Shown piece after piece: positions 2,886-41,727 of a stretch of 64,000 bases of DNA. A program made the position numbers and the translations under genes. A model generated the notes under the pieces. It was not told the DNA's origin, did not search any database, and was given only the letters and a program-made list of their open reading frames with translations. The DNA is taken from NCBI RefSeq assembly GCF_001447785.1, contig NW_015167062.1, positions 271,734 through 335,733 on the forward strand. The letters are read 5' to 3'. The DNA is from Gekko japonicus (Eukaryota). Positions within the stretch are counted from its first letter, which is position 1; the number at the start of each line of letters is the position of its first letter.

Positions 2886-3863
2886 TACGGCCGGCCCGAG
2901 GTTGTCCTGCTCTCTAGGCGAGCGCAGATGCCAACCTCCCGGCGGGAGAGAAATAGGGGCGGGAGAGGGAGGAATGAAGTGCAGCTTTCCTCTCGGCCCT
3001 TGCGCACCAGTGTGATTTGTCCCACAGGAGCTATATCAGCAGCACCAGGCAGTGCTGCCGCAGGAACCACCCACAGGAGCATGCCTGGCAGAGCTGCAGG
3101 CGGGGGCGCCGCGGGGGCGCCTCCTCCAAGCCGGCCTCCAAGTAGCCGTTCTCGCAGGGCTTCGCCATCACGCTGCCGGCCACGAGGGGAAAGCGGAAGG
3201 GAAAGGGCAGTGAAGACGTCCGCGGTCTGCCTCAGCGAGTGGAGGGACGAAAGGAAGAGAAAGTTGGAGTGGTGCGCGCCAAACCAGAGCCCGCCGTGCA
3301 CCTTGTGCCTTGTACGCACAGCCGGCAAAAGCTGATGCAAGCCAAAAGCAGTCTGAGCTCAGCCCCGGACTATCCCCCTCCCCCCTGCCTCTGACGGTCT
3401 GCCAGGGCTAGAAGGTGGCGTGCTTCGTCAGGCTGCAGCTGGGACCAGGTTAGGGAGTCTGCAGGAGACCCGACTGCCCCCCTGTCACCCCCCTTCAAAA
3501 GCACGGCTGTGCGGAGGACCCTTAGTGGCCCTTAGCTGGCCGGCGGAGGATCAAACGAGGGGGAGGAGGAGGAGGCAGGGGCAGCCACTGGCCAGCAGCC
3601 GCCCCTGCCTCCACGGTGTAGCTGGCTCCACCTCTGCCCCCTAGCTTGCTCCTCCACCAGCCAGCTACAGCGCCATGCCCTGCCCATGCCACCACCGCCG
3701 CGTGTCCTCCTCCTGCAGCCGGCAGAGCTCCTCCCAGCCCCGGCGCTCCTCCCAGCTGCTGGCCAGGTGCGCTGGCAGCTGCCCCTGCCTCTCCTCCCAC
3801 ACCCTAACGGCCGGCTTGCACTCTAGGTGAAGGCCTAGTTTGCCTAGCGGCGAGACGGCCCTG
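2886..3863 (-). mobile_element. Non-autonomous hAT-type element with GC-rich cargo (same family as 21164-22256)
   Basis: Minus-strand 5' end cagggccgtctcgccgctaggcaaactaggccttcacctagag matches 21164 cagggctggcttgctcactaggtgaactagactttcacccagag. 3' end ctcgcctagagagcaggacaacctcgggccggcc aligns ungapped with ctcgcctagggtgcaaaataagctggggccggcc at 22220-22253. The last 3 nt and the TSD are not preserved. Confidence 0.75.
3031..3168 (-). pseudogene. SLC1A4: Captured N-terminal fragment resembling neutral amino acid transporter A (ASCT1)
   Basis: Manual translation from ATG 3168 (Kozak gtgATGg): MAKPCENGYLEAGLEEAPPRRPRLQLCQACSCGWFLRQHCLVLLI*. This resembles the human SLC1A4 start as I recall it, MEKSNETNGYLD...RCAGFLRRQALVLLTV. 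Similarity stops at the start of TM1. Confidence 0.6.
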
Positions 3864-4021
3864 GTGAGCTGCTGGCATTAAAGTTGTGAGCAAGTGATTT
3901 GGCTGCTGCATAAATTAGTTTGCTCTGGAGCCATCTTTCCTGAGCTAAGACAACAATGTGTGAGCCAGAGGCTAAAAACCTGTGAGCTAACTCACACCTA
4001 CTCAGCTTAGAGAGAACACTG
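3864..4021 (+). mobile_element. hAT MITE, right part (family of 42296-42501)
   Basis: gtgagctgctggcattaaagttgtgagc...ctcagcttagagagaacactg is near-identical to 42344-42501. Confidence 0.8.
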
Positions 4022-5339
4022 CTCCCTGTCATCAGATAGAAACAGAAAAGGAGCAGGAGGCCCCACCAAAAAAGGCTCCCCGTACTCAGGGTGCTGTGAG
4101 TGGTGGGACACCAAGGCAGGCCACCCTTGAAGAGGTCATTTCCAAGAAGGAGGCCCAGGAAGAGGTTCTCGCTTAGTCAGCAAGATGATTGCTGTGTATG
4201 GCCAACCCTTCTCCTTCATGGAGAATATGGCCTTTTGCTGACTGCTGCAACACCTGGCTTCCTGGTACTCTGTCCCCTTGCAGAGGACCATGAGCTGACA
4301 AGTCTTGCCTACCATGCACTGCTCCACTGTGGCGAAAACCATAGAGTTTTCACTCAGATTATTGTGGCCCCGCCCCCAACATGCCCAACATGATTGCGTC
4401 ACTTCCGGGCATGACACCGGGCATGTCGTGTGCCTTGGGGGGTGGGGTTCCCCCAGGGCCCGATCCGCCAGCGGCAGGTAACAGGCCTCTCGGGCGGGGG
4501 TTTCCCTGCTCCCCGGGGGGACTTGGCAAGCGTAGGGGTGGATGAGTTGGACTTCCTGAAGGTCAATCTCCCCTTGCTGGGCTACCCCTCCCTGGACTTC
4601 ATAGGGTAATATCCAGGCCTCCTGTTGTCCCCCTGCATACCTCTCCATTCCTCCTCCTCTTTGGGTGATCTGGCATGAGGCCTGGGGGTTGCGTCTTGGA
4701 ACTTGGGTGGGACAATGGCTGCCTCTGCTGGGTGGGGGTGGGCTCCCTCACCTAACACAACACCTACCTCATGATCACTTTAAATGGAAAACTCTCATTT
4801 CTACTGGTCTGGTGGGGCTGGGGTACCCTGCCTGCCAAACTATCATGGGGTTACTTTGGGGAGCCCCTGTCCTGTCACATGTCTGCCTGTCACAGCTTTC
4901 TTTTGTTGTACCACAAATCACTTTAAATGAAAAACTGATTTCCATTGGTCTCGTGGGGCTAGGGTGCTTGCTAAGCTGTTGTGGCATAACTTTGGGGAGC
5001 TGCTATGGAAACTCTGGGGATGTCTGCCTTTCTGTCCTTTAGAACCTGCAGGCATTGGGGGGATGCTTGCCTTGCTTCTGGTGTCTGGCTGGGGGTCTGC
5101 CCAGGTGAAGTTTCCCTGTGAGTTTGGTGTCATTGTCCTCTTCCTGAGCGAATCCATAGACTCCTGTAACTGCAGCTATCTCTTCCAGAAAGAGCGCTGG
5201 TGAGACCTTGGGGGAGGGGTCCGTAACCCCACATATGTAATCCACCTTCAATTTGGAGAGGCTGTAGAGGAGCAGGCGGAAGGGCTAGGTCCCCTGTGTG
5301 TTTGGTATGTGTAGCTTGCAGGTTGCCCATTCTATACAT

Positions 5340-5977
5340 TGTCAGGATCAGCCAGGCTCTGCCAACCCTGGGGAGGCAGAGGACTATGGGGAAGAGGAAC
5401 AGGCAGGCGAAGGAAGTCCCATCTCACAGTCAGTTACTGACAACCTGCTACAGGAAGCTACTGCTACCCAGCCAAGTGGCAGTTCTGACAGTAGCATCCC
5501 AGCTGCTCAGGCCCAGGGCTCAGAGCCAGGTAGCACCCCACCAACCACCTCGCCTCCCTCGTCTCCAGAACCACTGGAACATAGGTGAAGGAGGGTCTGT
5601 CATGAAATGCTGGAGAGAAGACAGAGTTCACAATTAGCAGCCCAGAGACACCTTGGTCTAGATAGTAAGGAGGAAAGCACACACACCTTCATAATGCAAC
5701 CCAGCTGTGTGACAGGCCTCTCTTCTATAAACAGCAGAGACAGGCTGTGAAAGCAATGCATTCAGATTACCCCCAACCTTGGCACCACTGATTCTGCTTT
5801 GTGACTTTGACTCTTGGACCTTGTCTTTTGGATCTGCTCAGAACTGGCTCTTATTGCTACTCAATGTATGACTCAGGAACTGGACTCTGACCATCCTGTA
5901 CCGGTTTGTGCCTTCACCTCACCTAGCTTGCACCCTAACTATGTGATCCCGCCCCACACCCAGTCTGTTCCAGGACA
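5340..5977 (+). mobile_element. Solo LTR
   Basis: TGTC...GACA inverted ends, 5-bp TSD TACAT/TACAC, and a TATAAA box at ~5726. Confidence 0.7.
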
Positions 5978-6388
5978 TACACTTTTGAACCTGTGCCTGA
6001 CATTTCCCCCAAAAGCACTTTCCTGGCTTGACTTTAGTCCTGTTTGACTTGCAGTGCCACAGTGACTATGGTTCCCCAAAGAAAATGCCCCCAACCTTCA
6101 GTTTCTACTGAGAAATTTTCTTGTATGTAATGGAGGATGGGGCACTTTCTTTGAGGGTCATAGACACTGTAAATCCAATCCTCGCCAAACACGGAGGGCC
6201 AGTAGAGGAGTGTCTGCCAGAGATCCCCTAAGAGTTTGGTGTTTCTAGCACACCAGCTAAGTCACAAATTTCATGAACCAAACCAGTTCATCTAGCATCA
6301 AAAAGTTTGTAATGGTACATGGCTTGTGAACTGCACACACCATGAACTATGAACTGCACATCCTTTTCCTAGTTCATGCCCATCCCTA
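5978..6388. mobile_element. Right part of a degenerate hAT MITE (TAGGGATGGGCA TIR family)
   Basis: Ends with gttcatgcccatcccta. The same TIR occurs at 7880, 15147, 19509/20612, 31601 and 47180/47906. Confidence 0.6.
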
Positions 6389-6999
6389 ATCTCCTCCCAA
6401 GCTTCATCTGTCTGAGTTTACCAAAGTACTTGGCACTGTTGTCTTTATCCTGCATTCTAGCTTATTTTAGCAGACACTGAAGACATTTGTATAAAGCATC
6501 TGCATGAGAGCATCATTAGGAACTTCATGGACTTCAATGCAGAGTTAGAGGAATGTTTGTGGGTAGCACTTTTAGTGTTCTGCCTCTCTGCATCCCAGGC
6601 TCACATTGCCAGATATTGATGCTCTATTATCTCTATGATGCTCTAAATAATGTGGTTATTGATAAAGGCTCAGCCATCATTTCCTAATGTTTGCTCCCTA
6701 ATTATTGCAGTAGCACTTACCACAGTTAATACAAATAGACACATTTAAAACCCTCTTAACAGTTCCTAGTATGACTGGAAAATATTCCAAATAAGGATCA
6801 GTGTGCTAACTTGGTAGGCAGGTGGGTAGGAACTGTTGTTGGGGCAAAGTCTGGGAGAACTGCTCCATAATAGGGCGATCTTCAGGAGGTTAATACCCTT
6901 CTAAATCTTTTAATGCCAATTCTGCTTAGGATTGCACTGTAAGTGTTCAGCACTCCATATCCATTTGGACAGTAGGGCCATTTTGACTTACCTGGCTGT

Positions 7000-7780
7000 C
7001 TAGCATGACCCTGAAATACACTTGAAAACGAGAAGCTTTGAAAGCAACACATAAATATATGTGTAGATATATTTATACAGTACATAATAAACCTCTCATT
7101 TGATCGCTGCTGCCTCATTTGGTGTGCAGATGTATTTGCATTTTAATTTGTATACCTTCGAGCCTGCAGAGACCTTGACTTGTGTAAATTTGGGGGGGAC
7201 ACAAATACAGCCCCTTAGGTACGATGCTCCCTTTGCTGAAGAACTGCTGAAAATTTGGACACAAAGCAAAAGCCCATTTTATCTTGTTATGTAACAAAGC
7301 CAAATTGTTTATCCTCCTGAGCCTTTTGAGAGTTGGAAACGCTGACAGGATAAAACCACCATAAAGTGAATGCTTCATAATTAAAACCAGCTTCTTCCAA
7401 GTACCCATGACACTGCTCATGTTGGCAGCCTAATATCTAAGAGGCTATAATTAAGACAACAGTCTTTTTGTTGAGCTCCTCCTCCCCCTTCTACTAATGA
7501 TTTTTTGTCAAGTGACTTGTTTATAATCAGGCCAGCTCCTGCACACAGTTCGACAGGAGACCTGGCATCCTTGATGGCTTTATGAGACGGTAACGATGAT
7601 AAAACATCATCCACAGTTCCTTTAACAATGACTTGTGGGATGATTCCTCCAATCAGCTTTCTTCTCTGATTCATTCTTCTGGTTGCACTTTGAATCACAG
7701 CAAAGGATGAGCAATTAATCTGTCATTCCCAAAGGGATGAAAATATTTAACATTCAAGGCCATTAAGGAGGAAGTCTAGC
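7000..7780. promoter_or_regulatory. Candidate conserved non-coding element (enhancer-like)
   Basis: Non-repetitive block with many TAAT/ATTA, TTTAT and TGAC motifs (e.g. cataattaaa, ctataattaa, caattaatctgtca) and no recognisable TE or ORF. Confidence 0.4.
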
Positions 7781-7879
7781 GGATATGAAGAGACTCCACT
7801 CTAGCTATATCTACCTACTCCAAAGTTTCCTCAGTGATGAAAAAAACTATAGCTATAGGGAAGCTGAATGCAACCATGG

Positions 7880-8195
7880 ATAGTGATGAGCATGAACCGG
7901 CTCACAAACTAAAGTTTGTGACCAATTTTGGGCGGTTCATGGTTCGAGAAGTCAAGTTTGTGGCAGGTCACCCAGCACAAACTTTCAAGCTTTTTGTGCT
8001 GGTTCATGAGCAGATACATTTCCAGACAGACTCTCTCCACTCAGTCAAAATGTTTACATAACTTCAAAGCAACAACTTGGAGGGCATGCAGAGGAGCATC
8101 TGGGGGAGGTCCCCTGTGAGTTTGATGTCTCTAGCTTGCACAGGATCCATTCTATACACTCCCGGTTCAGTTCATGGTTTGGTTCGTGGTTCAGA
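7880..8195 (+). mobile_element. hAT MITE fragment (TAGGGATG family)
   Basis: Left TIR tagtgatgagcatgaacc and repeated ggttc(a/g)tgg subterminal motifs. Confidence 0.55.
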
Positions 8196-8629
8196 AAACA
8201 AACAAGCACTGTATAAATAATGCAGACCATGGAGTGCACAAAGGTCATGCAAAGGAAAATTATATTATAACAAAAACAAAACTAGCAAAAATAACAAGGG
8301 ACCACATATATCAGTAAAGCAAGATTACATCATAAAATGTGCAAGTCCATAAATAGTATACATAAGTAGTTTACAAAGACTCCGGATTTTGATCTTCGTT
8401 TCGAGGGTTCTTCTTCAAAGAGTTCAAACTACTTCATAAAGTACTGAGAATGTACAGAAGACTTCAATCATATATATGTAGGAAAAATCTTTCACCCAGC
8501 ACTCATAAAGCACAGAAGCCTTCAGACTAGTATTACAAGAAAAATTCAGTACTAATACTAATATAAAGCCGGGAATCCGATCGATAGTGGAACATGTTCT
8601 CAAATAGTCAGTAAGCCTCCATAGTAGTG

Positions 8630-8790
8630 ATAGCCAGTATAGTGTAGTGGTTAGAGTGTCAGACTGGGAGCCCCAAGTTCAAATTCTCACACTTCCATGG
8701 AAGCCTGATGGATGACCTTTGGCCAGTCACACACTCTCAGCCTCACCTACCTCACAGAGTTGTTGTGATGAGAATGCTATAAGCTTACCA
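8630..8790 (+). mobile_element. tRNA-derived SINE (old Squam3/MIR-like copy)
   Basis: agccagtatagtgtagtggttagagtg (A box), agttcaaattc (B box), cagcctcacctacctcacag core. Confidence 0.7.
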
Positions 8791-10196
8791 GGGATGGGTG
8801 ACAAAAAACAGGAACAGTCCCTGCATAACAGAGACAGTTGGAGTTAGTGTTATTATGGGAAAGTGAATTTCTTTTTCTGAAATGCACTTTTTTAGATATA
8901 ACTATTGATTTCTCTCTTTTTTCTCTTTGAAAAGGGGGATTTCTCTTTAATTTTTCTTCTATTTATCTTTGTAGAGATTTCTCTTTGTAGAGAAATCAAT
9001 GCACCCTTTTGTAACTTCAGTCCTTGCAGTTGTTTTATGATACACACCACAGGCTGGTACTTCCAGCAGGAGCATACGAAAGTTTGGGGAGACTTTGCTT
9101 GCCTCTGAACATCTACAGAATGAAATTCTGAAATGTTGCAGAACCTCCTTTCCCGCCCCTCTCATCTTTAAATTTCTTTTAGATCAATATGGAATTGATT
9201 AGAAACTGACTCCAGGGAGAAACTCAGTAAAGAGGAATTAAGAGAATTTCGCTTAACAGCCTGAGTTCGAGTATATGCTGATAGAAACAAAAAGCATGGC
9301 ATAAATAAAGGCTGATTTCTCAGAAAGGACATGCAAAAACAAAATGGGGATGCTTGTACCATATAATAGGTTTGGGAAATTTGGTCTCCTACCTTACTTG
9401 ATACTTCCAGTGACATTTGCACGAATCTTCAGGACTTTCTTTGGCATAAACTCCTGCCACCTTTGAATGCTGGCCATGCAACTTTCTGCCAAAATACATT
9501 TACTGAGTTATTCTATGCAAACCTTAATCAGTGTAGATGCAAATATCAAATTGTCTCTTCCAAGAGTATATTTCCAGCTCCTGATTGGTCAATCGTTTTA
9601 CTTTCCCATTGAGGTTGTATAAACGATGAACTAAATATAAGCTGAAACACATATGCCTAGCAATTTCCTTATCCATTTATTATAATGAGCATGAATGGAT
9701 AATGCCATCACTCAGATCTTGTCAGCAAATTCTCTTGGCCATTGAACAGACAAAATGGTCAAGTGCAACAGAAAGAGATTCTAGCTGGGACCTAAAGATA
9801 GTTCAGTTTATTATTGTACTGTACCATCTTTAGCACCAGGAGTGTGACTGGTGATGTATAAAGTGAAATTTTCATTGCTAGAGAATTTGCAACTCCCTAT
9901 GTCACAGGAACGAACAGGCTTGACATTGGCATATAAACAGTGTTAGGCTTGTCCGACTTCCAAGAGTGATGAGAAATTACAGGGCAAGTTTACCTAGGCT
10001 AGTTCCCTTTAAATCAGAGAACACTGGGGACACTTCTTTATATTTTATTGATTATTTATGAATGACTAGTGTCTGATTTTATTATTCTATATATTATGTA
10101 TTTTTATATTCAATTACTGTTTCATTGTTGCAATCCACCCTGAGCCTTCAGGAAAGGGTGGAACAGAAATCTAATGAATAAAATTAAATAAAAATT

Positions 10197-10335
10197 AGGA
10201 AAAGGCCTCAGTCTCTATGCTCTGGTGTTGGACCTCCAGAGGAACTGGTTGGCCACTGTGTGATACAGAATGCTGGAGCAGATGGACCCACGGGTCTGAT
10301 CCAGCAGGGCTCTTCTTATGTTCTTGTGACTTATG
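10197..10335 (+). mobile_element. CR1 LINE 3' end
   Basis: ...gtctgatccagcagggctcttcttatgttctt, the squamate CR1 (TTCTTATG)n-type terminus. Confidence 0.7.
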
Positions 10336-11544
10336 GCATTTTGGTAGTTTCTGCTTTATGTACAAATAGGGATGCTCAGACACCTGCTAGTTCCATTCAC
10401 AACCTGTTTGTCATTTCCAATCAGGGAGCTGATGAAGTGGCAGCCTGTTTGTTTGTTCATAGTCTGTTCATACATTTGGCACCAACAAGCTAGTTGCTGT
10501 GGAAGGTGTGAAGCTGACTCCCAGTTAATTCCCCATCTGTGAGTCAGCATTTGACCTCTTGCTGGCGAAACTTCAGCCCGGGGAACTGCAACCCAGGGAA
10601 GTTGCAGGAGTGGGGTGGGGCGGGGCAGAAGCTGACTCACAGCTGATTGCAATGATCAGATTAAAGTTGGAATCTGATGCCCAAACCCTGGAAACTTAGC
10701 TGCCTACCAGCCTGCTACTGAAACACAGCAAAGCGTTCTTTTGAGCGAATTCACAGCTGATTAGGCTCAGGAGTCTGCTTCTGATCCCTCCACCAAAAAT
10801 ATAGCTGTGTTTGAAGAAGTCTGGGAGAAAGCAAAATTAAAGATCTGAAACCTCTCTTCTCTAACTTTGTTGTATTCCAGTCTTCCCTTGAAGTAGCAAT
10901 TGGGGGGGGGGTGGATCACTCCCGCCTAATCCCCTGATCAAGTGGGAGATGACTTCTTATTCTACACCCCCAAAAACCCCCACCCAATGCTTTTTTGCAA
11001 CCCAGCTACAGTGGGAGGCAGCCAACTATCTGGCGCTCAGAGATCAGAATCCATCTCTTAACTGATCAGTGGATCAACTGGCAGTTGGCTGTTAATTTCC
11101 CCATCCATAAAAACCACTGCTGTCACCTAGCTGGTCTAGGGCCTACCTGAGTTTCCTAGGAGGGGGACTGAAAGCTCTGAACAACCCTGCTGGGCAGCTA
11201 GTAATGTGGTGTTTGATTGTTTGTTTGTTTGTTTGGGTTTTTTGTCCCTGAGCTGAACTAAATCTGTGTTCAGCCCACAATCTGACTGTATTCAAAACAG
11301 TATTTTATTGTAACTAGAATTTTGTAACTGGAATTTTATTGTAACTGAATCTGTGATGTTACCTGCTCTGAGCCCGCATGTGGGGAGGGTGGGATATAAA
11401 TGTGATAGATAAATAAATAAATAAATAAACAGTATATTCAGCTGTTGAACCAGTTCACTGTGGAATCTGAAGTACTGCTATGTACAAATATACAGCTAAA
11501 ACACTGGTGGAAACAGAGGCACCCTTACAAGACAGCAAACTTGC

Positions 11545-11550
<6 letters not shown>

Positions 11551-11602
<52 letters not shown>
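11551..11602. repeat. (AG)n microsatellite
   Basis: Seen directly. Confidence 0.98.
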
Positions 11603-11606
<4 letters not shown>

Positions 11607-11769
11607 TGTACCCACAAGGGATGTTATCAAACACACAGTAGTGTCTGTTGGCCCCTTTCTTTCTGTCTCTGTCTCTCTCTCTCTCTCTTACGGAATGTAA
11701 ACTATGTTGGTTTTTCCCCCCACAGAAACACATCCACTCCCAGCTTTCATCATGTAAAAGGGAATCACC

Positions 11770-12170
11770 TCCTCCAAGCTGTAATGGATGCTTGCACATA
11801 GCAATTTCTTAACTATGAAGGCTATTGAGGAGATACCTATGGTCACTGAGCAGCACAACCATTCTTTGCTCATAGGATCTGATTTCCCTGTGGCGTGCCA
11901 CTTTAGCCCAGTCCATAGGGGAGAACCATTCAATGTAAATTCACAGCAGTACTTTAAATCATATGAAGACGAATCAAGTGGACTCACAAGAGAAGTGCAC
12001 CTAAGATTGATTAGGAAAAGGCTACTTAAAAAATAGGTCTTGAGAACAAACGTAAAGGAATATGGGGAAATGGTTTCATGAACGTACGGAGTATCAGGCC
12101 AAGTAGGCAAAATGAACAGGTGAAATGGTGACACTGTTCTAAGATCATAGCACTTTAGATTTTTATTTGT
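11770..12170 (-). mobile_element. Degenerate RTEX-like LINE 3' fragment
   Basis: Minus ORF KYCCEFTLNGSPLW...WLCC...SIAFIVKKLLC resembles the C-terminal motif of the copies at 55860 and 62620. Confidence 0.4.
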
Positions 12171-12184
12171 ATTATTATACTTAC

Positions 12185-13434
12185 CAGGTCTCGGTTCCTG
12201 CCGGAGCACACCGGAGGACCACTCCGGAAGTCAGGAGTCCACGGGGCGGACACATAAGCCCCGCCCCCTGCTCCCACCAGCCATCAGTTGGGACACAGTG
12301 TGGGGGGGAATGTTCCCCCGCTTCCCTGAGCCCTGGGGTGGTGGCCTTGGACTCGTAGGGGCAAATTCCACCTCTCGCGCGAGAGGTCATTCTGTCTCCC
12401 CCAGCTCTCCTTCGGGGCTCCTTAAAAAGTTATGGCCACCGCCACTCTTCTCGGCAGCAGCTGTAATGCCCACGCGGGGGCGGGGCGAAATGTTCTCCTG
12501 CCTCCCTGAGCCCCGGGGTGGTGGCCTTGGACTCGTAGGGGCAAATTCCACCTCTCGCGTGTGATGCCGCTCAGACATCACATGCTCTTGGGAGGGGCTC
12601 TTTTAAAAGTTATGGCCGCCGCCGCTGTTCTTGGCGGCAGCTGTGATGCCCACGCAAGGGGGGGGCAAAAGGTTCCCTTGCCTCCCTGAGCCCCGGGGTG
12701 GTGGCCTTGGACTCGTAGGGGCAAATTCCACCTCTCCAGTGTGATGTCAAGCGAGAGGTCATCACACGCGAGAGGTCATTCCGGCTCTCCCAGCTCTCGG
12801 GAGGGGCTCTTTAAAAAGTTATTGCCGCTGTTGCTGTTCTCGGGGGCAGATGCGATGCCCGGCGGGTGGAGGGGGCGGGGCTGGGCGAAAAGTTCTCGTG
12901 CCTCCCTGAGCCCTGGGGTGGTGGCGTTGGACTCATAGGGGCAAATTCCACCTCTCGCGCGTGATGTCATTCTGGCTCCCCCAGCTGTCCTTAGGGGCTC
13001 TTTAAAAAGTTATGGTCCCCGCCTCCTCCACTTTCGGAGGCAGCTGCAACCACCACGGGGGGGTGGGGGAGGACTGCTGAGCTGCCCTTCCCTCCTTTTT
13101 CTGGCTCCACACTAGAACACCGGGCCTGAAAAAGGGCCAGCCAAATGTCAGTTTCGGCCCCTTTATATCCTATGGGCCATTGAAGTCAATGGTAAAAATA
13201 TAGGGTATATTCTGGGGGCTGGAGAGGAGGGAGTTTGAGGGATAGGCTCCAAACTCTCAGGGTAGCTGCTGGAGCCTCTCCCAAAAATACCAACCAGGTT
13301 AGAAGAACATTGGATCAGGGGGTCCAAGTCTACAGGCCCCCAAACAGGTTGCCCCTATCCTCTCTATTGTTCTCTATGATGGGGAAAAAGTAACTTTTCC
13401 CCCACCATAGAGAACAATGAAGGGGATGGGGGCA
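12185..13434. mobile_element. GC-rich non-autonomous DNA transposon with an internal tandem array, running into an assembly gap
   Basis: Starts cagg... and contains the tandem array plus a hairpin attgttctctatgatggggaaaaagt/acttttcccccaccatagagaacaat at 13366-13418. Confidence 0.5.
12300..13030. repeat. Tandem repeat, ~4 units, spacing 180/180/220 bp
   Basis: Core c(c/t)tccctgagccc(c/t)ggggtggtggc(c/g)ttggactc(g/a)taggggcaaattccacctctc at 12321, 12501, 12681 and 12901. Confidence 0.95.
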
Positions 13435-13558
13435 NNNNNNNNNNNNNNNNNNNNNNNNNNNNNNNNNNNNNNNNNNNNNNNNNNNNNNNNNNNNNNNNNN
13501 NNNNNNNNNNNNNNNNNNNNNNNNNNNNNNNNNNNNNNNNNNNNNNNNNNNNNNNNNN
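13435..13558. other. Assembly gap (N); further gaps at 17673-17724, 25880-25913 and 39413-39462
   Basis: N runs. Confidence 1.
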
Positions 13559-14174
13559 GGCTTGCTCGGGCTCCCCGAGCAAACCAAGGCAAGGGAAGGT
13601 GGCAGAGCAGCTGGAGACATTGAGCCTCAGCTCCACAAGTAATGAGCACTCGAGCCCCGCCCCCAGCAGCCCTCAGGCTGGAGCACCTGGAGCAGTCTTG
13701 GGAGGCGGATTGGCAAAAAGCAAAACCAAAAGCGCAGGAACTTGAGAGAACTCCAGGAATGGAGCCGGTTCCTCTTCCACAGCCCAAAATGCGACCCACG
13801 AACCCTGAGCTTGCTTTTTCTCATTTGCGAGTCTGGCCTCCGCACTCCTTTAACGAGGCAGCCCTGAAGCTTGGGGTGGCGGGAGTTTCTTTGTATGCAG
13901 CTTGTGCGACTGGCTGAGTGCCTCTTCTGCTTGCCCACCTCTCGCCTCTGCACCTCATCTTCTGCCAGGCATGGAGGAGCCCAGCTCGCCCAGGCTTCTT
14001 GCCTCCTGCTGCCTTGGCCCTCTGGTGCATGGGTGAGTCCCCAAAGTTTGACTCTTCCTCTACAAGTCTCTGGCGCTGGAGGTATTCGCCTCCTTTCCTC
14101 CTGCCTGCTATGGCTGCATAATTGTGAGGGATTTCTTAACATAGTGTTCCTGCCAGGGAAGCTGGGGACCCTGC

Positions 14175-14335
14175 CCATGAGTCTCCATTTCATCCTCACA
14201 ACAACCCTGTGGGGTAGGTTAGGTAGAGAAGGGGAGATTTGGCCCGGGGTCACTCAGCCAGCAGAGTGAGAATACAAACCTGGGTCTCCCCACATCAATC
14301 TGCAACTCTGACCACTGTGCAGTGCTGCCTCTACT
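14175..14335 (-). mobile_element. tRNA-derived SINE (Squam3/MIR-like)
   Basis: catcctcacaacaaccctgtggggtaggttagg, the reverse complement of the SINE core. Confidence 0.65.
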
Positions 14336-14599
14336 GATCTGTAAGGTTCCAGAGGTGTTGTAATACTCAGTTTCTCAAACGAGTGTATGCCTGTCTGTTG
14401 GTCCACTTAGGAGTTTTGATCCTGGTTGTGTGGTGGGCTAGTTGTGGCAAATGGTAGGGAAGCTCAGCATTTCTGTATACAGTTGTAGGGGCTTTATTGC
14501 AATGTGCTATGGCCTGATATTACGTTCTTATTCCGGTGTGGGGTGTGTGGGGCGCAATGGAAGCTGAGTGATAGGGGGTGATTTCCCACAAGCGCTGCT

Positions 14600-15050
14600 C
14601 TACACTCACTCCTCCCTTTTGCCCTGATGGTACGTGTCAATTGTGTGGAAATCACTGCAAACCAGGATCCTAGCATAAATCAAGCAATTGCATCAAAGAT
14701 AGGATAATTTACATATCAGAAATCATAATACCATTGTTGGAGAATAAGCAAGCATTTCTCTCCACATTTTAATAATGCTAAGTGATATAAACATTTATGC
14801 TAATATAGTGGAGTCTTTCTGAATCATACAAAAACTCAGAGGCCAATTTCCATTAACTGAGTTGGTGGATTATCTTGCAAACAAATAAACAATGCTGAAG
14901 CAAAGCAACTGTGTGTTGCAATGTATTCTGCTCACATACCCTGACAATTACAGCCTCATTTTAATTATTGATGGTAATTCATAATGCACTAGTAAATGTT
15001 TGGGAGCATATTTTGCACAAATAGTAATCATGTAGAGAGATATCGAGAAA
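14600..15050. promoter_or_regulatory. Candidate conserved non-coding element
   Basis: Unique AT-rich block dense in TAAT/ATTA, TGACA and TAAACA motifs. Confidence 0.4.
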
Positions 15051-16243
15051 GAGTTCAACTTTCAGAACTTTCTCTTGATGAGGCTAGGTTGCTTTTGTTG
15101 TTGTTGTTGTTCAATTTCTCTGTAACTAGGGTCTTTTATAAGTAACTAGAGATGGGCACAAACTGGGAAAACGTGGTTTGTGATGTTCATAGTTAGTGGC
15201 GTGCCCAGTTGGGAGTCATATTATCATTGCTAGGTCACCCCTGGCCACTGGTGGGGGATGAAGAGGAAGGGTTGCCAGGTCCAGGTTGGGGGAATTCCTG
15301 GAGATTTGAGGGTGGAACCTGGGGAGGACAGGGACCTCAGTGCGGTACAATGCTATACAGTCCATCCTCCAAAGCATCTATTTTCTCCAGGGAAACTGAT
15401 CTCTGTAGTCTGGAGATGAGCTGTAATTCCAGGGGTGCCACCTGGAGGCTGGCATCCCTAGGGCAAATTCAGATGGCTGCCCTTGTTGAGCTTCCACTGT
15501 AAACTCAGGCCCTGTCAGGAATAGGGCTCCCAGCCTATGTATAGCTTTGCATTATTTTTTGCTAATGATAATGTTTATCTTTGTCATTAGATATAGAAAT
15601 TTCAATGTTATGCATTCTGACAAAGTTTGTGAATGAAACAAGACTTGATATTGCATAGTATGTTAGTGTTGACCGTGTCATTGTGAATGATTTTTGAGAG
15701 ACTGATCTGCTCCAAGTAAACTGGATATTGGATAAGAACTTTGGATATATATATTTTTGGCATAATACTTCATGGTTGTTCTGCTTATTTCCACTGCCCA
15801 TCCTGTGATCTCTCTTTTTGGTTTGCAGCCCCCAAATCTGGGCAGGGTTTCCCCCACTTTGGGGGGCTCCAAGTTGCCCCCAGCCAGTTGGTCAGCTGGG
15901 GAAGCCCAACCCCCAAGAGCAACCAACTGCCCAGCCACCCCTCTCCCTCCCCTCCTGCCAGATTTAAAGGGCTTTAGCTGATCAGCGGGGACCACATGGC
16001 CTGCTGATCAGCTGGAGGGCCCTTTAGCAGGAGGGAGGGAGAGGGGCAGTCACAGGCCACACACTCGGCTCACAAAAAGACCCTTTCAAGGGGGAGAGAG
16101 GGGTGGTCAAGTGGCTGGCTGCCCTTGGGCCTGGGGTTTGGGGGCATCCCTGCCCACCTTGGAATGCCCCAAATATCCCCACTTGAGCAATGAGGGGAAC
16201 TGGCATCCCTAGTCAGGAATCACATGGGGGGCCATTTGGAAAA

Positions 16244-17672
16244 CCCAATACACCCTTCCAGGATTTTATAATCCTGCCCTCAGGGACATTATCAACAAGT
16301 CCTTCTATGAGGGGCTGTTCCCAGGGGCACTCAGGGAAGCGATGGTCTGCCCTCTCCTGAAAAAAAGTCACTGGATCCAGCTGAATTGGCTAACTATCGG
16401 CCGGTCTCCAATTTGCCCTATTTGCGTGGCCATTGCACCACACGGTCAGGCGAAGTGACCGAGCTTCGCTCTCAGGAACAATGGGACATGCGGATCCTAG
16501 CCGGCACCTATCGGCAGGCTAGGCTCCTGGCCGAGAGCCTATGGAACTCTCGGCCACTGTAAATAGCCAATCACTTGTGCGTGTGCGTGTTTGGGGAGCA
16601 GGGTTTGTGCATATATAAACCAGCCTGCGAGCTGGTTACTCTCATCTTGTTCTGAGCTGAAATAAAGTATGAGAGCTGAAATCACTAGTAAGTCTCAGTA
16701 CTTTTCAGAGACAGCACTGGTTGCTCTCACAGAAGACCTCCGAAGGCATCTGGATCAAGGCGGTACGGCAGTACTGGTGCTGGTGGATCTGTCGGCAACA
16801 TTTGACACCATCGACCACCAATTACTGATCCACCGCTTCACTGACACTGGAATCCAAGGGCTGGCCTTGCAATGGCTTGTCTCCTTTCTACAGGGTCGGG
16901 GACAGAGGGTGGCATTAGGGGAGCATACAGGGGAGCTGTGCAGGGTGCCTCAAGGGGCGGTGTTATCCCCGATGTTGTTTAACATCTACATGCACCCCCT
17001 TGCCCAGATTGTCTGGTGGCATGGGCTGGGGTGTCATCAGTACTCTGATGACACCCAGCTATATTTGTTGTTGGGCGGCTGGTCCGACTCCAGCCCAGAT
17101 GACCTCAAGTGGGCGCTTCAGGATGTGGCGGGCTGGCTTAGACTAAGCCGATTGAAATTGAATTGAATGAAGATGGAGGTCCTGTGCCTGAGTTGGAGCA
17201 GGTCGGGGGTAGGGATCCCACTACTGACCTTCGGTGGGGTGCCATTGGTGCCAGCGCCGAGGGTTAGGAGTCTGGGAGAGCTCCTGGATCCCTCCCTTAC
17301 CACGGAGGCCCAGGTAGCAGCCACTGCCAAGGTGGCCTTTTACCATCTACAGCTGATTAGGCAGTTGGTTCCCTTCCTCAAATGCAATGACCTAGCAACA
17401 GTGATCCATTCAATGGTCACCTTGAGATTAGACTACTGCAACACTCTCTACATGGGGCTGCCCTTGTCCCAGATCCAGAGGCTGCAGCTAGTACAGAATG
17501 CCGCAACCAGGCTGCTGATGGGTCTCTCTACATGGGACCACGTACAGCCTGTGTTGAGGACACTGCACTGGCTGCCTATAGCGTACCGGATTCGGTTCAA
17601 GGTGCTGGTTTTAACCTTTAAAGCCCTATATGGTCAGGGGCCTGCCTACGTGAGGGACTGCCTTTCCCCACA
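16244..17672 (+). mobile_element. L2-clade LINE fragment interrupted at 16425-16707
   Basis: NYRPVSNLP upstream, then ETALVALTEDL, VDLSATFDTIDH, VPQGAVLSPMLFNIY, YSDDTQLY, RLDYCN and LHWLPIAYRIRFK. Same subfamily as 150-1513. Confidence 0.93.
16425..16707 (+). mobile_element. Young LTR-like insert (U3-R-U5 signals)
   Basis: CCAAT 16567, TATATAAA 16612, AATAAA 16661, ends in CA, CpGs retained. It replaces part of the host L2. Confidence 0.6.
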
Positions 17673-17770
17673 NNNNNNNNNNNNNNNNNNNNNNNNNNNN
17701 NNNNNNNNNNNNNNNNNNNNNNNNCGGCATTCTGTGCCTCCTGAAGCTTATTCAGCCCTTATTCAGCCCT

Positions 17771-18062
17771 TGAGAGCCAGTTTGGTGTAGTGGTTAAGTG
17801 CGCGGATTCTAATCTGTGAGAACCGGGTTTGATTCCCCACTCCTCCACTTGCACCTGGCTGGATGACCTTGGGCAAGCCGTAGTTCTGATAAGAGCTGTT
17901 CTTGAAAAAGAGCAGTTTCTGTCAAGAGCTCTCTCAGCTCCACCTACCTCACAGGGTGTCTGTTGTGGGGAGGGGAAGGGAAAGGAGTTTGGAAGCCACT
18001 CCGAGACACCTTTGGGTAGTGAAAGGCGGGGTATAAATTCAATCTCTTCTTCTTCTTCTTTT
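17771..18062 (+). mobile_element. Squam3-type tRNA SINE with (TTC)n tail
   Basis: gagagccagtttggtgtagtggttaag (A box), ggtttgattccc (B box), tail tcttcttcttcttc. Confidence 0.9.
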
Positions 18063-19508
18063 CCCCACACACACACATGCACATACACCATATTTATTTA
18101 GGTTAATGTATAAAGTTGTACTTTTCTGGTTCTTGTGGGTGTCCTAGATATGCTGATGTTCACGATGCTAATGGGTGACAGCCCCTCTACTATTAGAAAT
18201 AATGGCAACATTCATTCCATGGCTTTACCTAATGTGAAATGTCAGGGTGAATTTGTAAGTCCATGTTCAAGCAAACCCCAAGGGAGAGAAAAAGTAGTGA
18301 AATTTCTCAGCAGGAGTTTACACATCCCTAACGTTGCCATCTGTAAAACAGCAGGGCTATCTCATGGGGGTTGTTGTGAAGGAAAAGAAGAAAGACTGTA
18401 AGAATATTTAACACATTAAAAATACTCAATGCTGTTTACTTTGAATGTGGGATGATGGGTCGCAGAAAGCTATATGATGCTATTTTTACCTCTGTGTAAA
18501 TAAAATGGGCCATAAAGCAGTTGAGTTCTACATCTGATAACAAACACATTCTTATCGCCTTCCTTTGTATTACTGTGTCAATGCACATTACCTTTGCTGT
18601 GCTGTACCTTGAAATAACTGTAATTAGTGAGATTAAAATGGAAACAGATTTGAGTTAGCAGCAATTTTAGAATTCATAAAGGTCAAGGGAAACACTGGGA
18701 GAGAGGCTATGATAAACCAGTATGCAAAACACTCAGGATTACACAAGGCAAAATTAAAGCATTTATCAAAAGAAGTGCATTCAAATCTTAAAAATAGCAG
18801 AAGGCCTGTTTAACATTTAGTACAATAGGTTTTATAACACTGCAGTAGCAGACTCTGATAGCATCTGCCTTTCATACAGTACCTATAGGAGACTGAGCAG
18901 TATTTTTTCAGTACACGTAATATATAACTTGATCTCCCAGTGCTTTTTATCTGTTGGAGGGGGGATGGTGATGATTTAAAAAACTGACACCATGACCCAG
19001 ATATTTTTTTATAGTGTACAACTTTAAAAAAAAAGTAAGAAAGCATTTGTAAGAGCATATGGGGACAATGGCCCCTCAGGAATAAGTTGTTTCCCCTCTC
19101 TGAATTTCCAGACCCCCCTTTTAAAAATAACATCTAGCCCTTTTAGTTGTGGATGTACAAGATAAAAGGCACAAAGTTTGTCTCACGATTGCCTGAGAAG
19201 GAGTGGGGGAGGGGAAGCACCCAGACAGTTGCAAACTGCTGAATTGTAACTGATAATGAAACTCAAGACAAGCATCCTCCTGTACAGAATCAAGACCTAG
19301 GTTTTCTGTATCATTACCAATGTTGATTTCTCCATGCCTATTACCTTGCTGCATAGCACACCTAATCCAATCAGGAGGTAATTAGATTAACTTTAATTCA
19401 ATCAATTTTAGTTAGGTTAACTGTCCCCTAAAAAATTTAATGACCCCCAAAGGGAAAAAAAAATCCTGGCTATGGGCCTGATCTGAAATCACTCTATTCT
19501 ACAAGATA

Positions 19509-20612
19509 TAAGGATGGGCACAAACTGGTCCCATGAACCATGAACTGAGATCAACCTCCCCCAGTTTGCAAATTGGGTTGGTTTGTGAGGTTCGCAGATC
19601 TTCCCTCCCTCCTTTTTGCTTGTGGTGCCTCCTTGAGGCCAACAGAATAGAAGGGAAGGAGATCTTACAAAAGCCATTTAAAGGGAACATTCCATTAATG
19701 TGTTCCAAATTTTGCAAGCGGCCACTTTGTGCATGTAAAATCCAAGCAGTGAGTTCACTTCCTGGTGAACTCACTGTTGGACTTCACTCGGCCATGGCAC
19801 CTGCTTGCAAAAGCCATTTAAAAGGAATATTTCCTTTAAATGGCTTTTGCAAGCCATTTCAGCAATCCCTTGGAAGCAGAGGGGAGAGAAAGTGGTTGCT
19901 GAAATACTGGAATAACTTGCAAAAAGCAATTTAAAGGGGGGGTTTTCACAAGTCATTTCAGATATTCCTTTCGCTCCTACCCACTTCCAAGCAGGGGGAG
20001 TGGAAGGGATCGTTGTAATGCCTTCTCAGTTTACCCACTGAGTCACGCTGCTGCAGTGAAGCAACTCAGCCAGTCAACTGAGAAGGCATTTAAATGCCTT
20101 CCAAGTTGCAAGTCATTTCAGCGATCCCTTTCACTCCCCCCCCCGGCTTGGAAGCGAGGGCGAAGTGAAAGAGATTGCTGAAATGCTGAAATGGCTTCCA
20201 AATGGGGGGGAGTGAAAGGGATTGCTGAAATGGCTTCCAACTGGGAAGGCATCTAAATGCCTTCTCAGTTGACTTGCTGAGAAGGCATTTCACTGCTACA
20301 GCAGTGGTGGCATGGCTTGCAAAAACCATTTAAGAGATCCCTTTAAATGGTTTTTGCAAACCACGCAGCAGTTGTGGTGTGGCTTAGAGAAGGCATTTAA
20401 AGAGACCGTGGTCTCTTTAAATGCTTTCTCCAGCCCCCTCCACTGGCCCCAGCATGTCTGCCAAAATGAACCACACAAACCCACCTGGAAGGTTCATGGG
20501 AGGTTTGTGTGGCTCATGAGGGCGGGATGCCATGAACCAAGGTTGGCAAACCATGAACCAGGGCCAGTTCATAATGAATTTCAGTTTGTAATTCAATTTG
20601 TGCCGATCCCTA
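19509..20612. mobile_element. Non-autonomous hAT element with internal palindromic subrepeats
   Basis: TIRs taaggatgggcacaaa / tttgtgccgatcccta. Internal hairpins such as ttgcaaaagccatttaaa...tttaaatggcttttgcaa at 19806-19852, and repeated aggcatttaaatgcct. Confidence 0.75.
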
Positions 20613-20634
20613 ATAAGGACAAATGGACTCACAT

Positions 20635-20775
20635 TCTTGCTGTATCTGAAGAAGTGAGCTGTGACTCACAAAAGCTCATACCCTGCCACAATTTGTTTTA
20701 GCCTTTAAGTTGCTAGTGGACTCTTGCTCTTTTCTATAGCTACACACAGACTAACATGGCTACCCAGCTTGATCT
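20635..20775 (+). mobile_element. Penelope-like element terminal fragment with degenerate hammerhead ribozyme
   Basis: ctgaaga-a-gtgag-ctgtga-ctcac-(a)aaa-gctca at 20646-20678. Confidence 0.7.
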
Positions 20776-21163
20776 AGCTGCATCTGAGTTAGTTTTCTAA
20801 TTACTGACCAAATTCACTGTAATCTGTTCTGTATCACAAGCTTTGCCTCCTGGGCTGTTTGCTTCTTTCCCGTTTGCTTCATTTGTCTTTAATATTTGCA
20901 GTGACAAGTGAGATTATTGTGCAGAAAATTGGATTGAGAGTTACACTATTGGGGAGGTTGCCTCCTCAGTCTGCAGTCGTGAAGTTGCCTCAGGAGGAGG
21001 TGGGGCCATGGAAAAGGGGGCAAGAGCAGAATGAGTGTCCAGTTTCATTCAGTTTATTTAAAAGAATGTTGGCATCTGAGCAAGTACAAAAAACCTTGCA
21101 TTCACTAGTGATTGCCCACTATTAAGCTCCTCTCCTCACTTCTCCTAAATCTGGGATTGGGAG

Positions 21164-22256
21164 CAGGGCTGGCTTGCTCACTAGGTGAACTAGACTTTCA
21201 CCCAGAGCACAAAGCCATCATGGGGCGCCGGGCTGGGGGCCCACATTCCCTCCCTCCGTTGCCCACTGCCGTGCACATGTGCCTCATCTGCTGGCCCCGA
21301 GCAACTGTGCCGTTGCTCCCTGCCACCTGGCCAAGCCAAGCGCCCTGGCCAGCCTCCCTCCCTCCTTCCCGCCATGGCTGCCATGGCCTGCCTACTCCAT
21401 CGAGCGCCAAGGCGCCCCAACCCTCTGGCTCCCTGCTGCCTGGCATGTGAAGAAGGCCACCAAACCCTCTCAGGTGACGACCTGAGGAGGTGAGGGGGAC
21501 TGAAGTGCTGGGGGGGAGGGGTCCACCCACCCTCTTTAGCTTGCCGCATGGGAGAGTCCTCCTGCTCAGTGCCACGGCCGGTGGGGGCAAGGGGAGGCTA
21601 GTCCTCCTCAACCCTCCTGCCGCTGCTGCTCTCCCAAGAGGGGAGGAAGGACCCCCTGGCAGGATCTGCCCAGAGCCGGTCCCTCTCGCCCAGCAGCAGC
21701 CTCCCACTTCGCCCTGCACCCTGGCTGGGGCCTTGCACTCAGGTGCCGATGGCCCTCCTCCTTCTCCTCTCATGGGCAGCAACTCCCCCCAGGTACCCCC
21801 TTCCCACACAGGCTCACCCTCCCCCTTCTCAGGCCCCACGAGGGAGGGAGGGGGAGAGAGAGAGGGCTGCCTCCTGGCCGAACCTCTCCGAGAGCGTGGC
21901 CCCCAGCCAAGTGGGGCTGGGAGCCCGGGCGCCACCTGCCCCCCCAGTTCTCATCTGGATTTCCCATCTCTCCTTCTCCACGCCCACGGTTGCTGACTCA
22001 AGTCCAGTTTGGGGATTTCCCAGAGATCTGAAGGTGGCAGTGGGGAGGGGAGGGAGCTTGGTGGGGCAGAACATCACCCAGTCCCACCCTCCCCAAGTGG
22101 CCCCTTTCTTCTGGAGAGCGGTTGTGATTCCGGGAGGTCTCCAGGCCACGGCTGGAAGTTGGCACCGGTGCAGGGCCCCTCCCCCACCCTTGAAAATTGG
22201 GGAGGCACCAGAAAGGATCCTCGCCTAGGGTGCAAAATAAGCTGGGGCCGGCCCTG
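21164..22256 (+). mobile_element. Non-autonomous hAT element with GC-rich cargo
   Basis: TIRs cagggctggc / gccggccctg and a perfect 8-bp TSD ATTGGGAG (21156-21163, 22257-22264). Confidence 0.9.
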
Positions 22257-41094: not shown

Positions 41095-41727
41095 GGTGGT
41101 GGTGATGGTGGTGAAAAGTGCTCTCAGGTCAAAGCTGATTTATGACAGGTCCCGTGGGGTGTTCTGTTGGAGTCAGTGACTCAGCATGCCTGGACATTGT
41201 GGGGAGCTACATCACTCTAAGTGTATGTGTAGGTGTTATCTCCTTGAATGGGATGCTTCTCTTTGTCTTAACATGGGAACTACCCTCTGACCCCCTCCTC
41301 TCTCTCTTATTTTGTCCTCTCACACTCTTCACGTGGTGTTCCATGGACAGACACATCTCTACAGGTCCCTCCTGTAGAAACAATGACCTTGTACTCCCAT
41401 ACATATGATGCCGGATTAGCTGGCCATTTGTGATAGGGAAAGTACATTTTAGATTAGGCTTCTCTCTCTTCTTTTGACTACAACCTGAATGTGAACAGGA
41501 TCCGCTTGAATAAATGTAAGTTTTTACCCTTTTTTGCAATCTACTTCTTGGGAGATTTATTTATTGCACTCAGTGTCACCTTTCTATATTTGGGCATTCT
41601 CTGGTATATTAAGCAAATATCCTAATATTTTCAGAGCAAGAGACATTCAGAGGTGGTTTGCCATTACCTGCCTCTGCATCATGACCCTGATATTCTTTGA
41701 AGGTCTCTCATCCAAACACTAGCCAGT
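41095..41727 (-). mobile_element. 5S rRNA-derived SINE split by a solo LTR
   Basis: The halves at 41095-41164 and 41628-41727 join into the reverse complement of 56885-57092. Confidence 0.75.
41165..41627 (-). mobile_element. Solo LTR
   Basis: tgttgga...cctaata ends, TSD TGTTC/TTTTC, inserted into the SINE sequence ggggttttc. Confidence 0.65.

Follow-up and report, generated by a model that had tools for sequence, protein, structure and literature searches.

Could a cut-and-paste transposon pick up the starts of host genes and scatter them through a vertebrate genome? In animals, Helitrons have been credited with taking up promoters and first exons on a large scale. Two GC-rich elements, here called A and B, raise the question in the window, the 64,000-nucleotide stretch of the Gekko japonicus genome that was analysed. 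A preliminary description had read them as hAT copies with common ends and unrelated, first-exon-like interiors taken from the host.

One hAT family with many interiors

We found that both elements (Table 1) belong to one non-autonomous hAT family. As had been claimed, their termini are shared (5′ ends agreeing in 40 of 53 aligned columns, 3′ ends at 79% across 34 bp) and their interiors are unrelated, with local alignment scores of 93 and 102 compared with a mean of 80 and a maximum of 112 in 50 shuffles. The family ends carry a 10-bp terminal inverted repeat (TIR), and a sub-terminal motif is repeated at both ends. The 5′ terminus pattern has 3,920 exact matches genome-wide, a lower bound on 5′ termini, and a control pattern has none. 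A 3′ end with an 8-bp target site duplication (TSD) was present for 65 of 90 sampled 5′ termini, so the ends do recur in pairs beyond the window; 47 of these TSDs were perfect, 14 had one mismatch and 4 had two.

Furthermore, the 64 copies compared contained 34 interior types. The GC content was at least 0.6 in 36 of the 44 interiors of at least 300 bp, and 18 of the 64 sampled copies were plain 220-bp deletion derivatives. Inverted and direct duplications are frequent inside the elements. Scaling the termini count (3,920 × 36/90) puts the number of complete copies that have a GC-rich interior at ~1,570, a rough figure given that the count is a lower bound and the sample of 90 termini was non-random.

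The autonomous-type partner that the preliminary description had called for is also present in the genome, as hAT transposase copies with the family ends; all those found were broken, and no intact copy was seen among them. Their Pfam domains are DUF4371 (E 6e-18) and hAT dimerisation (E 4e-8). The family 3′ end lies at 7 of 13 transposase loci; the copy on contig C6179 has both family ends and a TSD, and that on C17325 has the 5′ end. The matching transposase and the 8-bp TSDs found genome-wide establish the hAT membership. The end sequence, together with DUF4371, suggests a putative placement in the Tip100-type hAT group. Helitrons have no TIR, no TSD and rolling-circle ends, whereas this family has both TIRs and TSDs. 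Neither this family nor any reptile hAT that captures CpG islands was described in the literature searched, which took in few subscription papers; the family consensus may already carry a name in Repbase or Dfam.

Structure of the two elements

Table 1. Positions of elements A and B and of their parts in the window.
Feature	Position	Strand	Remark
Element A, non-autonomous hAT copy, 975 bp	2889..3863	-	3′ TIR clipped, no TSD
A, 5′ TIR and sub-terminal repeats	3817..3863	-	pattern with 3,920 exact genomic matches
A, GC-rich 5′ core common to sub-lineage A	3622..3816	-	
A, inverted duplicate of part of the core	3526..3596	+	at the first-cargo junction
A, cargo 1: TMEM150-like first-exon end, splice donor and intron start	3384..3530	+	89% to G000:C13970:836905-837052
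A, cargo 2: SLC1A4 5′ region and first 44 codons	3036..3382	-	ATG at 3168
A, cargo 3: upstream promoter piece	2949..3038	+	same TMEM150-like island as cargo 1
A, 3′ sub-terminal region and clipped TIR	2889..2946	-
Half of an unrelated high-copy small repeat (D12)	3864..4021	.	insertion target of A
Element B, complete non-autonomous hAT copy, 1,093 bp	21164..22256	+
B, left 8-bp TSD	21156..21163	+
B, right 8-bp TSD	22257..22264	+
B, GC-rich insert of modules common to other copies	21366..22035	+	missing from 450-bp siblings
B, part of the 3′ core	22041..22164	+	weakly like the small repeat family at 50341 and 59499 (E 4e-4, 75-76%)

Element A had been placed at 2886–3863. Its right end is correct, but the 3′ TIR is without its last 3 bp, which puts the other end near 2889. 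At 7 of 8 positions the flanks mismatch where a TSD would be, the repeat that houses the element has lost its left half, and sequencing reads show very high depth with loose ends at 3864. Element A is a member of its own multicopy sub-lineage and its interior is not unique; a sibling, L032 (G000:C8340), is full-length with a perfect TSD.

Two unlinked host genes make up the mosaic in element A, where the SLC1A4 5′ end lies between two TMEM150-like promoter/first-exon pieces. Over the coding part, the SLC1A4 piece is 91% identical to G000:C12974:71.9–72.2 kb, where the exon that served as source is a match to Neutral amino acid transporter A (E 1e-55; Pfam SDF). At the TMEM150-like source, which we take to be TMEM150A, spliced RNA reads join the host exon to one that lies 6 kb downstream, and the downstream exons match Pfam Frag1 (Frag1/DRAM family). 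No transcription of element A itself was seen in three RNA runs sampled at 3–12%, with a depth of 0–1 over 3029–3357.

Element B has the perfect TSD reported for it. Similarly, it belongs to a multicopy sub-lineage of its own, with four full-length siblings (78–81%), each with its own TSD, and its interior is not unique. Both interiors are 67% GC, with a CpG o/e of 0.53 in A and 0.29 in B (window 0.23). Thus, although a CpG-island-like character was first ascribed to both, B is GC-rich but not CpG-island-like today. Nor are the surroundings of A AT-rich as described, since the first 6 kb around it are 46–60% GC.

Host sources of the cargo

Does the cargo come from single-copy host genes? For 4 of the 11 interiors searched, we located six single-copy source loci, all on other contigs: SLC1A4, the TMEM150-like gene, CCDC85 and islands on C35, C12311 and C10612. 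All six are CpG islands (GC 0.68–0.78, CpG o/e 0.74–0.99) compared with 1 of 232 background windows; the interiors had been picked as GC-rich, which favors GC-rich sources. Cargo–source identities range from 72 to 98%, with several sources per interior, and the host DNA lies between both ends of one TIR element (L032, L009, L117, L096 and others). Two-gene mosaics are present in several elements, and in one of them the C35 and C12311 islands are nested, one within the other. Apart from the pieces in A, the cargo in other copies includes CCDC85, TLX-type and forkhead pieces and three unnamed CpG-island pieces, and the search of 11 interiors led to eight different host loci in all.

Two further interiors hold host coding pieces for which the gene was not located. 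For the TLX-type cargo, only two paralogous genes were found (77–87% over the coding part); for the forkhead cargo, the exact start pattern had no matches, and the source was not among the 30 of 61 forkhead loci fetched. Four interiors yielded no source: L079 (40 of 128 candidates scored), L064 (40 of 124, then 10 of 10), L071 (40 of 117) and element B. With B's own interior as the query, all 27 of 27 candidates scored were family copies and short contigs, as were the 40 of 41 scored with a less decayed sibling. The remaining interior, L099, was left out of these outcomes. For L133, no source locus was found among 26 of 26 candidates. Pfam gave no matches in 571 open frames (at least 45 aa) from 46 representative elements; since this includes elements with proven short coding pieces, the test is too blunt. 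Two short cargo peptides likewise had no usable match in the ESM Atlas.

The proposal that the family captures host promoter and first-exon fragments is supported by the six sources, among them SLC1A4 exon 1 and the TMEM150-like first exon in A, and neither of the two outcomes named in advance as refuting it (termini unpaired with TSDs elsewhere, interiors lacking any single-copy host source) was observed. No source was found for B, however, and the TLX-type piece is an intron end plus exon 2, not a first exon. Any working promoters among the dispersed cargo are putative.

Capture and spread of the cargo

The content of the cargo points to copying at the DNA level: splice donors, the ends of introns and promoter DNA from upstream are all present, and the pieces lie in both orientations. 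At four clean junctions, we observed microhomologies of 3, 2, 4 and 4 bp against a null mean of 0.8 (P ~0.0015; n = 4, with ambiguous junctions and one paralog proxy excluded), and short local duplications and inversions adjoin other junctions. CpG sites differ from the host at 0.20–0.32 in 6 of 7 segments and at 0.13 in the seventh, and non-CpG sites differ at ~0.05 in the best-aligned segments. Most CpG changes are of the C>T or G>A kind (SLC1A4, 153 of 163; CCDC85, 116 of 126), which indicates transfer from the host to the element and a loss of CpGs from the cargo since then. Furthermore, the C10612 cargo is found in five copies with five TSDs, many copies with differing TSDs hold SLC1A4 or TLX-type cargo, and the CCDC85 cargo is present in five copies. 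Such distinct TSDs on loaded copies indicate re-transposition after capture; the sequence of captures is deduced solely from which modules the copies share.

We therefore have good confidence that this hAT family carries host DNA in which pieces of CpG-island promoters, of first exons and of introns have been joined, and that this DNA was likely copied from distant loci by template switching in repair or replication and then transposed. It is plausible that excision or fork stalling leaves a broken end within a GC-rich element, and that this end, after annealing over 2–4 bp to a CpG island that is open and unmethylated, copies 50–500 bp of the island and then goes back. Successive rounds of copying would assemble mosaics. 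The transposase would require the ends alone, so any interior could ride along, and the loaded copies would become methylated and decay neutrally.

Could the cargo instead be mainly second-hand, captured first by Helitrons or other transposons and acquired in slices through inter-repeat recombination? Two Helitron-like copies (C6140 and C1708) hold the same SLC1A4-to-TMEM150 junction. They cover more of the TMEM150 island at either side, and two substitutions common to the hAT copies are absent from them; with these longer flanks, this capture may not be the hAT family's own. The forkhead N-terminal piece is also found, in a longer form, in other TIR families, and recombination between anole hATs is reported in the accessible text of PMC3014272. 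On the other hand, the Helitron-like copies share changes in the SLC1A4 part with one hAT copy, and transfer from hAT to Helitron fits equally. All 6 of 6 CCDC85 candidates are the source and five hAT copies, and the C10612 cargo was found in its source, hAT copies and short contigs. We consider a second-hand origin rather unlikely. Capture by the hAT family is supported by the sources found, but some cargo is common to other transposon families.

The sampled interiors could also be mostly reshuffled GC-rich DNA derived from transposons, with gene pieces as incidental filler. The ~70% of interior bases that are unexplained, the missing source of element B and the internal duplications and deletion derivatives described above would fit such a minority share for host cargo. 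However, autonomous copies match only 12% of the interior bases and repeats at eight or more loci match less than 1% (in a small, 783-kb flank library), and the 11 tries led to eight different host loci. The assembly, in 191,500 contigs, has gaps in GC-rich DNA, so source loci may be missing from it. This reading is unlikely.

Capture of adjacent DNA is quite improbable. Here, elements inserted in or beside CpG islands would pick up the flank by end bypass or paired ends and then undergo internal deletions. Transposons often prefer open chromatin, as the available parts of PMC5861414 describe for rice MULEs, and the deletion adjacent to element A indicates that irregular end events do occur. 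However, the fetched flanks of all six sources lack the family termini, the cargo sits within conserved 5′ and 3′ cores and not at the ends, and one source is split by a second mid-element. It is very improbable that mRNA was retroposed into resting elements, or that single copies were filled by repair after mobility had ended (most animal Pack-TIRs are single-copy gap-filling products in the accessible text of PMC8277862), as the cargo contains intron and upstream DNA with no spliced junctions or poly(A) seen and, in the examined cases, loaded copies are multicopy with different TSDs.

Implications

DNA from at least eight host loci, developmental regulators included, is thus present in one cut-and-paste family, in nested mosaics whose junctions can be traced. 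On balance, we favor the broader view that this lineage holds a true vertebrate equivalent of Pack-MULEs, with fragments from hundreds of CpG-island gene starts (promoters and first exons), multi-gene mosaics and at least ~1,500 loaded copies, which would be the largest cut-and-paste shuffling of gene fragments known in an animal. In this view, several other families, trading cargo with Helitrons, would probably have done likewise alongside the hAT family. If true, this would be a natural test of how repair picks open chromatin as a template. Hundreds of datable junctions would bear on the ways in which TIR elements come to take up host DNA and on their preference for GC-rich gene starts. The family scatters GC-rich DNA with splice sites and start codons into AT-rich regions; loaded copies keep older states of host promoters and can mislead gene and CpG-island annotation in gecko genomes.

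Comparison with known systems

In the accessible text on the Anolis hobo_AC hATs (Novick et al. 2011, PMC3014272), squamate hATs likewise have similar ends and very different interiors, incorporate extraneous genomic DNA and recombine mutually; there, unlike here, the filler is genomic DNA with old transposon fragments, "gene fragment" does not occur, and capture of genes, promoters or CpG islands is not named. Bat Helitrons, as far as the available text of Thomas et al. 2014 (PMC4224331) describes them, also captured promoters, 5′ UTRs and first exons and introns sequentially and amplified them to thousands of copies in a vertebrate, but they are rolling-circle elements without TIRs or TSDs, whereas the gecko family is cut-and-paste. 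Plant Pack-TYPE elements, including Pack-hAT, likewise belong to the non-autonomous DNA transposons and take up and rearrange coding DNA, but are limited to plants according to the abstract (PMC8903248).

The closest animal survey, in its accessible parts, covered 100 genomes and found 370 Pack-TIR cases, mostly hAT, and only four multicopy families, with none in the lizard and no row for gecko (Tan et al. 2021, PMC8277862). The same parts describe copied host DNA and breakpoint microhomology, and multicopy cases favoring GC-rich DNA and distant sources, as here. The filters given there (at least 90% identity, one source making up 80–120% of the interior, annotated repeats) would miss most gecko cases, with their lower identities and several sources. 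A single parental copy unflanked by the element, as in a Pack-TIR, was found for 4 of 11 interiors, not for element B. Unlike animal Pack-TIRs, a single gecko family gives many multicopy, multi-source mosaics.

Pack-MULEs are defined by long Mutator TIRs and a 9-bp TSD, and a fraction of them is transcribed or gives rise to small RNAs. The gecko family has an 8-bp TSD, a 10-bp TIR, a hAT transposase and a vertebrate host, but it shares with Pack-MULEs the GC-rich 5′ gene fragments and several genes per element. Those of rice, numbering more than 3,000 in the available text of PMC4224331, belong to a system that PMC5861414, in its accessible parts, describes as non-autonomous TIR elements, present in the thousands, whose interiors are heterogeneous, GC-rich and derived from open, low-methylation genes. 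The gecko family works like a Pack-MULE, but it is not one.

The Family and Its Copies

The gecko pack-type hAT family is real. The preliminary description had proposed that elements A and B share termini around unrelated interiors and represent a squamate hAT family dispersing host promoter and first-exon fragments, a reading supported by host sources, shared ends, target-site duplications (TSDs) and loaded copies that transposed again after capture. Upon alignment, the 5′ ends of A and B were identical in 40 of 53 columns and the 3′ ends showed 79% identity across 34 bp; the interiors aligned no better than shuffled sequence (scores of 93 and 102 vs. a mean of 80 and a maximum of 112 in 50 shuffles). 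Both interiors have a GC content of 67%, with CpG observed/expected (o/e) ratios of 0.53 in A and 0.29 in B, compared with 0.23 in the window. The boundaries typical of hAT elements held for B, which is flanked by a perfect 8-bp TSD, and failed for A, where no TSD was found and 3 terminal bp of the TIR are missing; A sits within a different small repeat, the left half of which is lost.

In the 2.49 Gb assembly (191,500 contigs), a 30-bp pattern of the 5′ terminus had 3,920 exact matches (control pattern, 0), and a tight 3′ pattern of a single sub-lineage had 224. Among 90 termini taken from the first ones listed, 65 had a partner 3′ end no more than 1.5–3 kb away, together with an 8-bp TSD (47 perfect, 14 with one mismatch, 4 with two). 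With one duplicate removed, the 64 copies (197–2,185 bp) sort into 34 interior types, and 18 are a 220-bp form that matches the autonomous element at both its ends. Interior GC was at least 60% in 36 of the 44 copies of at least 300 bp; the median CpG o/e was 0.46. A and B are members of separate multicopy sub-lineages, each with a common 5′ core, a common 3′ core and a variable middle. Near-perfect local duplications beside gaps at many loci, like the tandem duplication in the table, suggest assembly artefacts.

Coordinates of the elements, their cargo and neighboring features (C, contig of genome G000; L, cut-out locus)
Feature	Location	Description
Element A	window 2889–3863 (minus)	hAT copy
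SLC1A4 cargo of A	window 3036–3382	5′ region plus first 44 codons; coding part 91% identical
C13970 cargo of A	window 3384–3530; 2949–3038	89% for the first segment
Element B	window 21164–22256 (plus)	hAT copy
Array	window 12298–13065	rich in GC and CpG; ~four units of 180–220 bp; GC 0.58–0.62; CpG o/e 0.62
Tandem duplication	window 41705–42244	270 bp; 97% identity
Small palindromic elements	window 20065–20281; 33990–34171; 47310–47744	long inverted arms (78–81 bp and shorter)
LINE-like copies	window 192–1091; 16706–17668	77–82% identity; third piece near 60426–60684
5′-truncated family copies	L033, L407 (G000:C13073, C33038); L235	LINE-like sequence joined directly at truncation point
Hydrophobic reading frame	L195, L203, L204, L205 (~1200–1650)	family copies; start codon, then ~35 hydrophobic codons
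Short reading frame	L064:1969–2040	signal-peptide-like, then splice donor; large sub-lineage
Host first intron	L318/L394 (G000:C10612:51.7–52.8 kb)
Second copy of C12311 island region	L213 (G000:C4957:121.7–122.1 kb)	diverged, CpG-depleted; 71–84%
Helitron-like copies	L447:1896–2830; L448:2242–3290 (G000:C6140, C1708)	TC start; no TSD; ~700–800 bp TMEM150-like island
Other small TIR families	L380:1040–2270; L383:1470–2100; L381:1540–1790	different ends; FOXD-type forkhead N-terminal piece, longer than in the hAT family
Autonomous copy with both ends	L337 (G000:C6179:247376–253861, minus)	1.4-kb GC-rich 5′ region resembling CpG-island DNA
GC-rich pack-like elements	L292:4572–5372; L294:6014–6935	related; within or adjoining hAT transposase copies; one lies in the transposase gene, flanked by an 8-bp TSD

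Host Sources of the Cargo

A pattern spanning element A to the predicted continuation had a single genomic match, on C12974, where an intact first coding exon lies within a CpG island. The peptide it encodes matches SLC1A4, the Neutral amino acid transporter A (E 1e-55; Pfam SDF). A second island, on C13970, is the source of the flanking segments; RNA reads with the host alleles are spliced from a donor site in this stretch to an exon 6 kb downstream that follows a canonical acceptor. Later exons match Pfam Frag1/DRAM, and we take the product to be TMEM150A. Element A thus holds the promoter side and the exon-1/intron side of the C13970 gene in antisense, with the middle replaced by the start of SLC1A4 in sense. 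The SLC1A4 cargo has a stop in one copy and a frameshift common to all long copies, which fits neutral decay. RNA depth over window 3029–3357 was 0–1 in three runs (3–12% of each read); in one run, the shared 5′ core of A reached a depth of 16–37, likely from other copies because the letters of those reads differ from A.

Other copies carry other genes. In L009 and four further copies, 364 bp of CCDC85 (5′ region plus 47 codons) lie in antisense; the six candidates for this cargo are the source, an intact gene in an island on C14573, and the five elements. L096 carries a C35 island (92% and 75%) interrupted by pieces of a C12311 island (94–98%); L213 is apparently an old segmental duplicate of the latter region. 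An exon–donor–intron stretch from an island on C10612 recurs in L117 and its four siblings, whose TSDs differ from copy to copy. Two small repeats in the host first intron are missing from these copies, which therefore probably record an earlier form of the locus. In nine copies, an intron end and the start of a homeobox exon, presumably of the TLX type, are joined to a piece of SLC1A4 cargo; the host matches were limited to two paralogous genes. L133 and its siblings carry an N-terminal piece of a forkhead gene; other repeats contain it in longer form, with a match to a gecko forkhead protein (91% across half of the query, E 4e-3). The hydrophobic reading frame of L195 and related copies looks, from its sequence, like the first exon of a small membrane protein and had no Atlas match.

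Among 11 interiors searched, four led to source loci (six loci), two had a host coding identity with no gene located, four (element B, L079, L064 with its short reading frame, and L071) had no source among the loci examined, and for one (L099) the search covered the list of matches. Host sources were thus found for A and, among the loci examined, not for B. Matches to autonomous copies cover 12% of the interior bases in the sample, and matches to repeats found at no fewer than 8 loci in a flank library of 783 kb cover <1%; another 18% match a smaller number of these loci (sources, family fragments), which leaves 70% unexplained. The assembly has gaps within GC-rich DNA, which may conceal sources. 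All six sources have a GC content of 0.68–0.78 and a CpG o/e of 0.74–0.99, and thresholds of 0.6 and 0.65 were passed by a single background window out of 232 and by none of 123 in the window, a contrast inflated by the choice of GC-rich interiors as queries.

Capture, Decay and Transposase

Could the cargo have reached the hAT copies second-hand, via other transposon classes? In part, this is real. Two Helitron-like copies have the same SLC1A4/TMEM150 junction with longer TMEM150 flanks, and the forkhead piece is also present in other TIR families, so that pack-type behavior likely reaches several families in this genome. The substitution patterns in the SLC1A4/TMEM150 cargo point both ways; cargo therefore crossed between classes, in one direction or the other. 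For the CCDC85 and C10612 cargo, on the other hand, no such intermediate was seen. Adjacent capture of flanking DNA fits poorly; the six sources lie on other contigs, with no family termini in the fetched flanks. Retroposition also fits poorly, and the template was DNA, because intronic and upstream sequence is part of the cargo, which occurs in both orientations.

Four clean junctions show microhomologies of 3, 2, 4 and 4 bp (null mean 0.8, P about 0.0015); at others, short stretches of neighboring sequence are duplicated or inverted. We infer a step of template switching: when a gap left by excision, or a stalled fork, is repaired within a GC-rich element, the repair would switch to open, unmethylated islands and then return, in a repeating cycle, with the ends alone required by the transposase. 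Between copies and sources, 20–32% of CpG sites differ in six of seven segments, against about 5% of non-CpG sites in the best-aligned segments, and nearly all CpG differences are C>T or G>A: the island was kept by the host and the copies were methylated.

A DUF4371 search of the genome gave 131 matches. The autonomous element with matching ends, sought since the preliminary description, was found in broken copies: the C5031 copy closes with the 3′ terminus of the family, and its broken protein retains DUF4371 (E 6e-18) along with the hAT dimerization region (E 4e-8); at C6179 both termini are present together with a TSD, and at C17325 the family's 5′ end is. Related transposase copies are mostly 85–96% identical, and 7 of 13 examined carry the family 3′ end. 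No intact copy was seen among them, and the family, putatively of the Tip100 type, is therefore likely inactive today. The autonomous element may itself run on a captured promoter.

Comparison with Known Systems

A literature search, with repeat databases outside its scope, found no description of this gecko family. In the survey of Tan et al., animal Pack-TIRs number 370, of which 208 are hAT, with only 4 multicopy families and 0 in the lizard; the filters leave out mosaics. The nearest squamate precedent is the hobo hATs of Anole, which take up extraneous DNA and recombine; gene or promoter capture is absent from the part of their description available (PMC3014272). The gecko family works like the rice Pack-MULEs (PMC5861414) and the bat Helitrons (PMC4224331), yet it is a hAT family.
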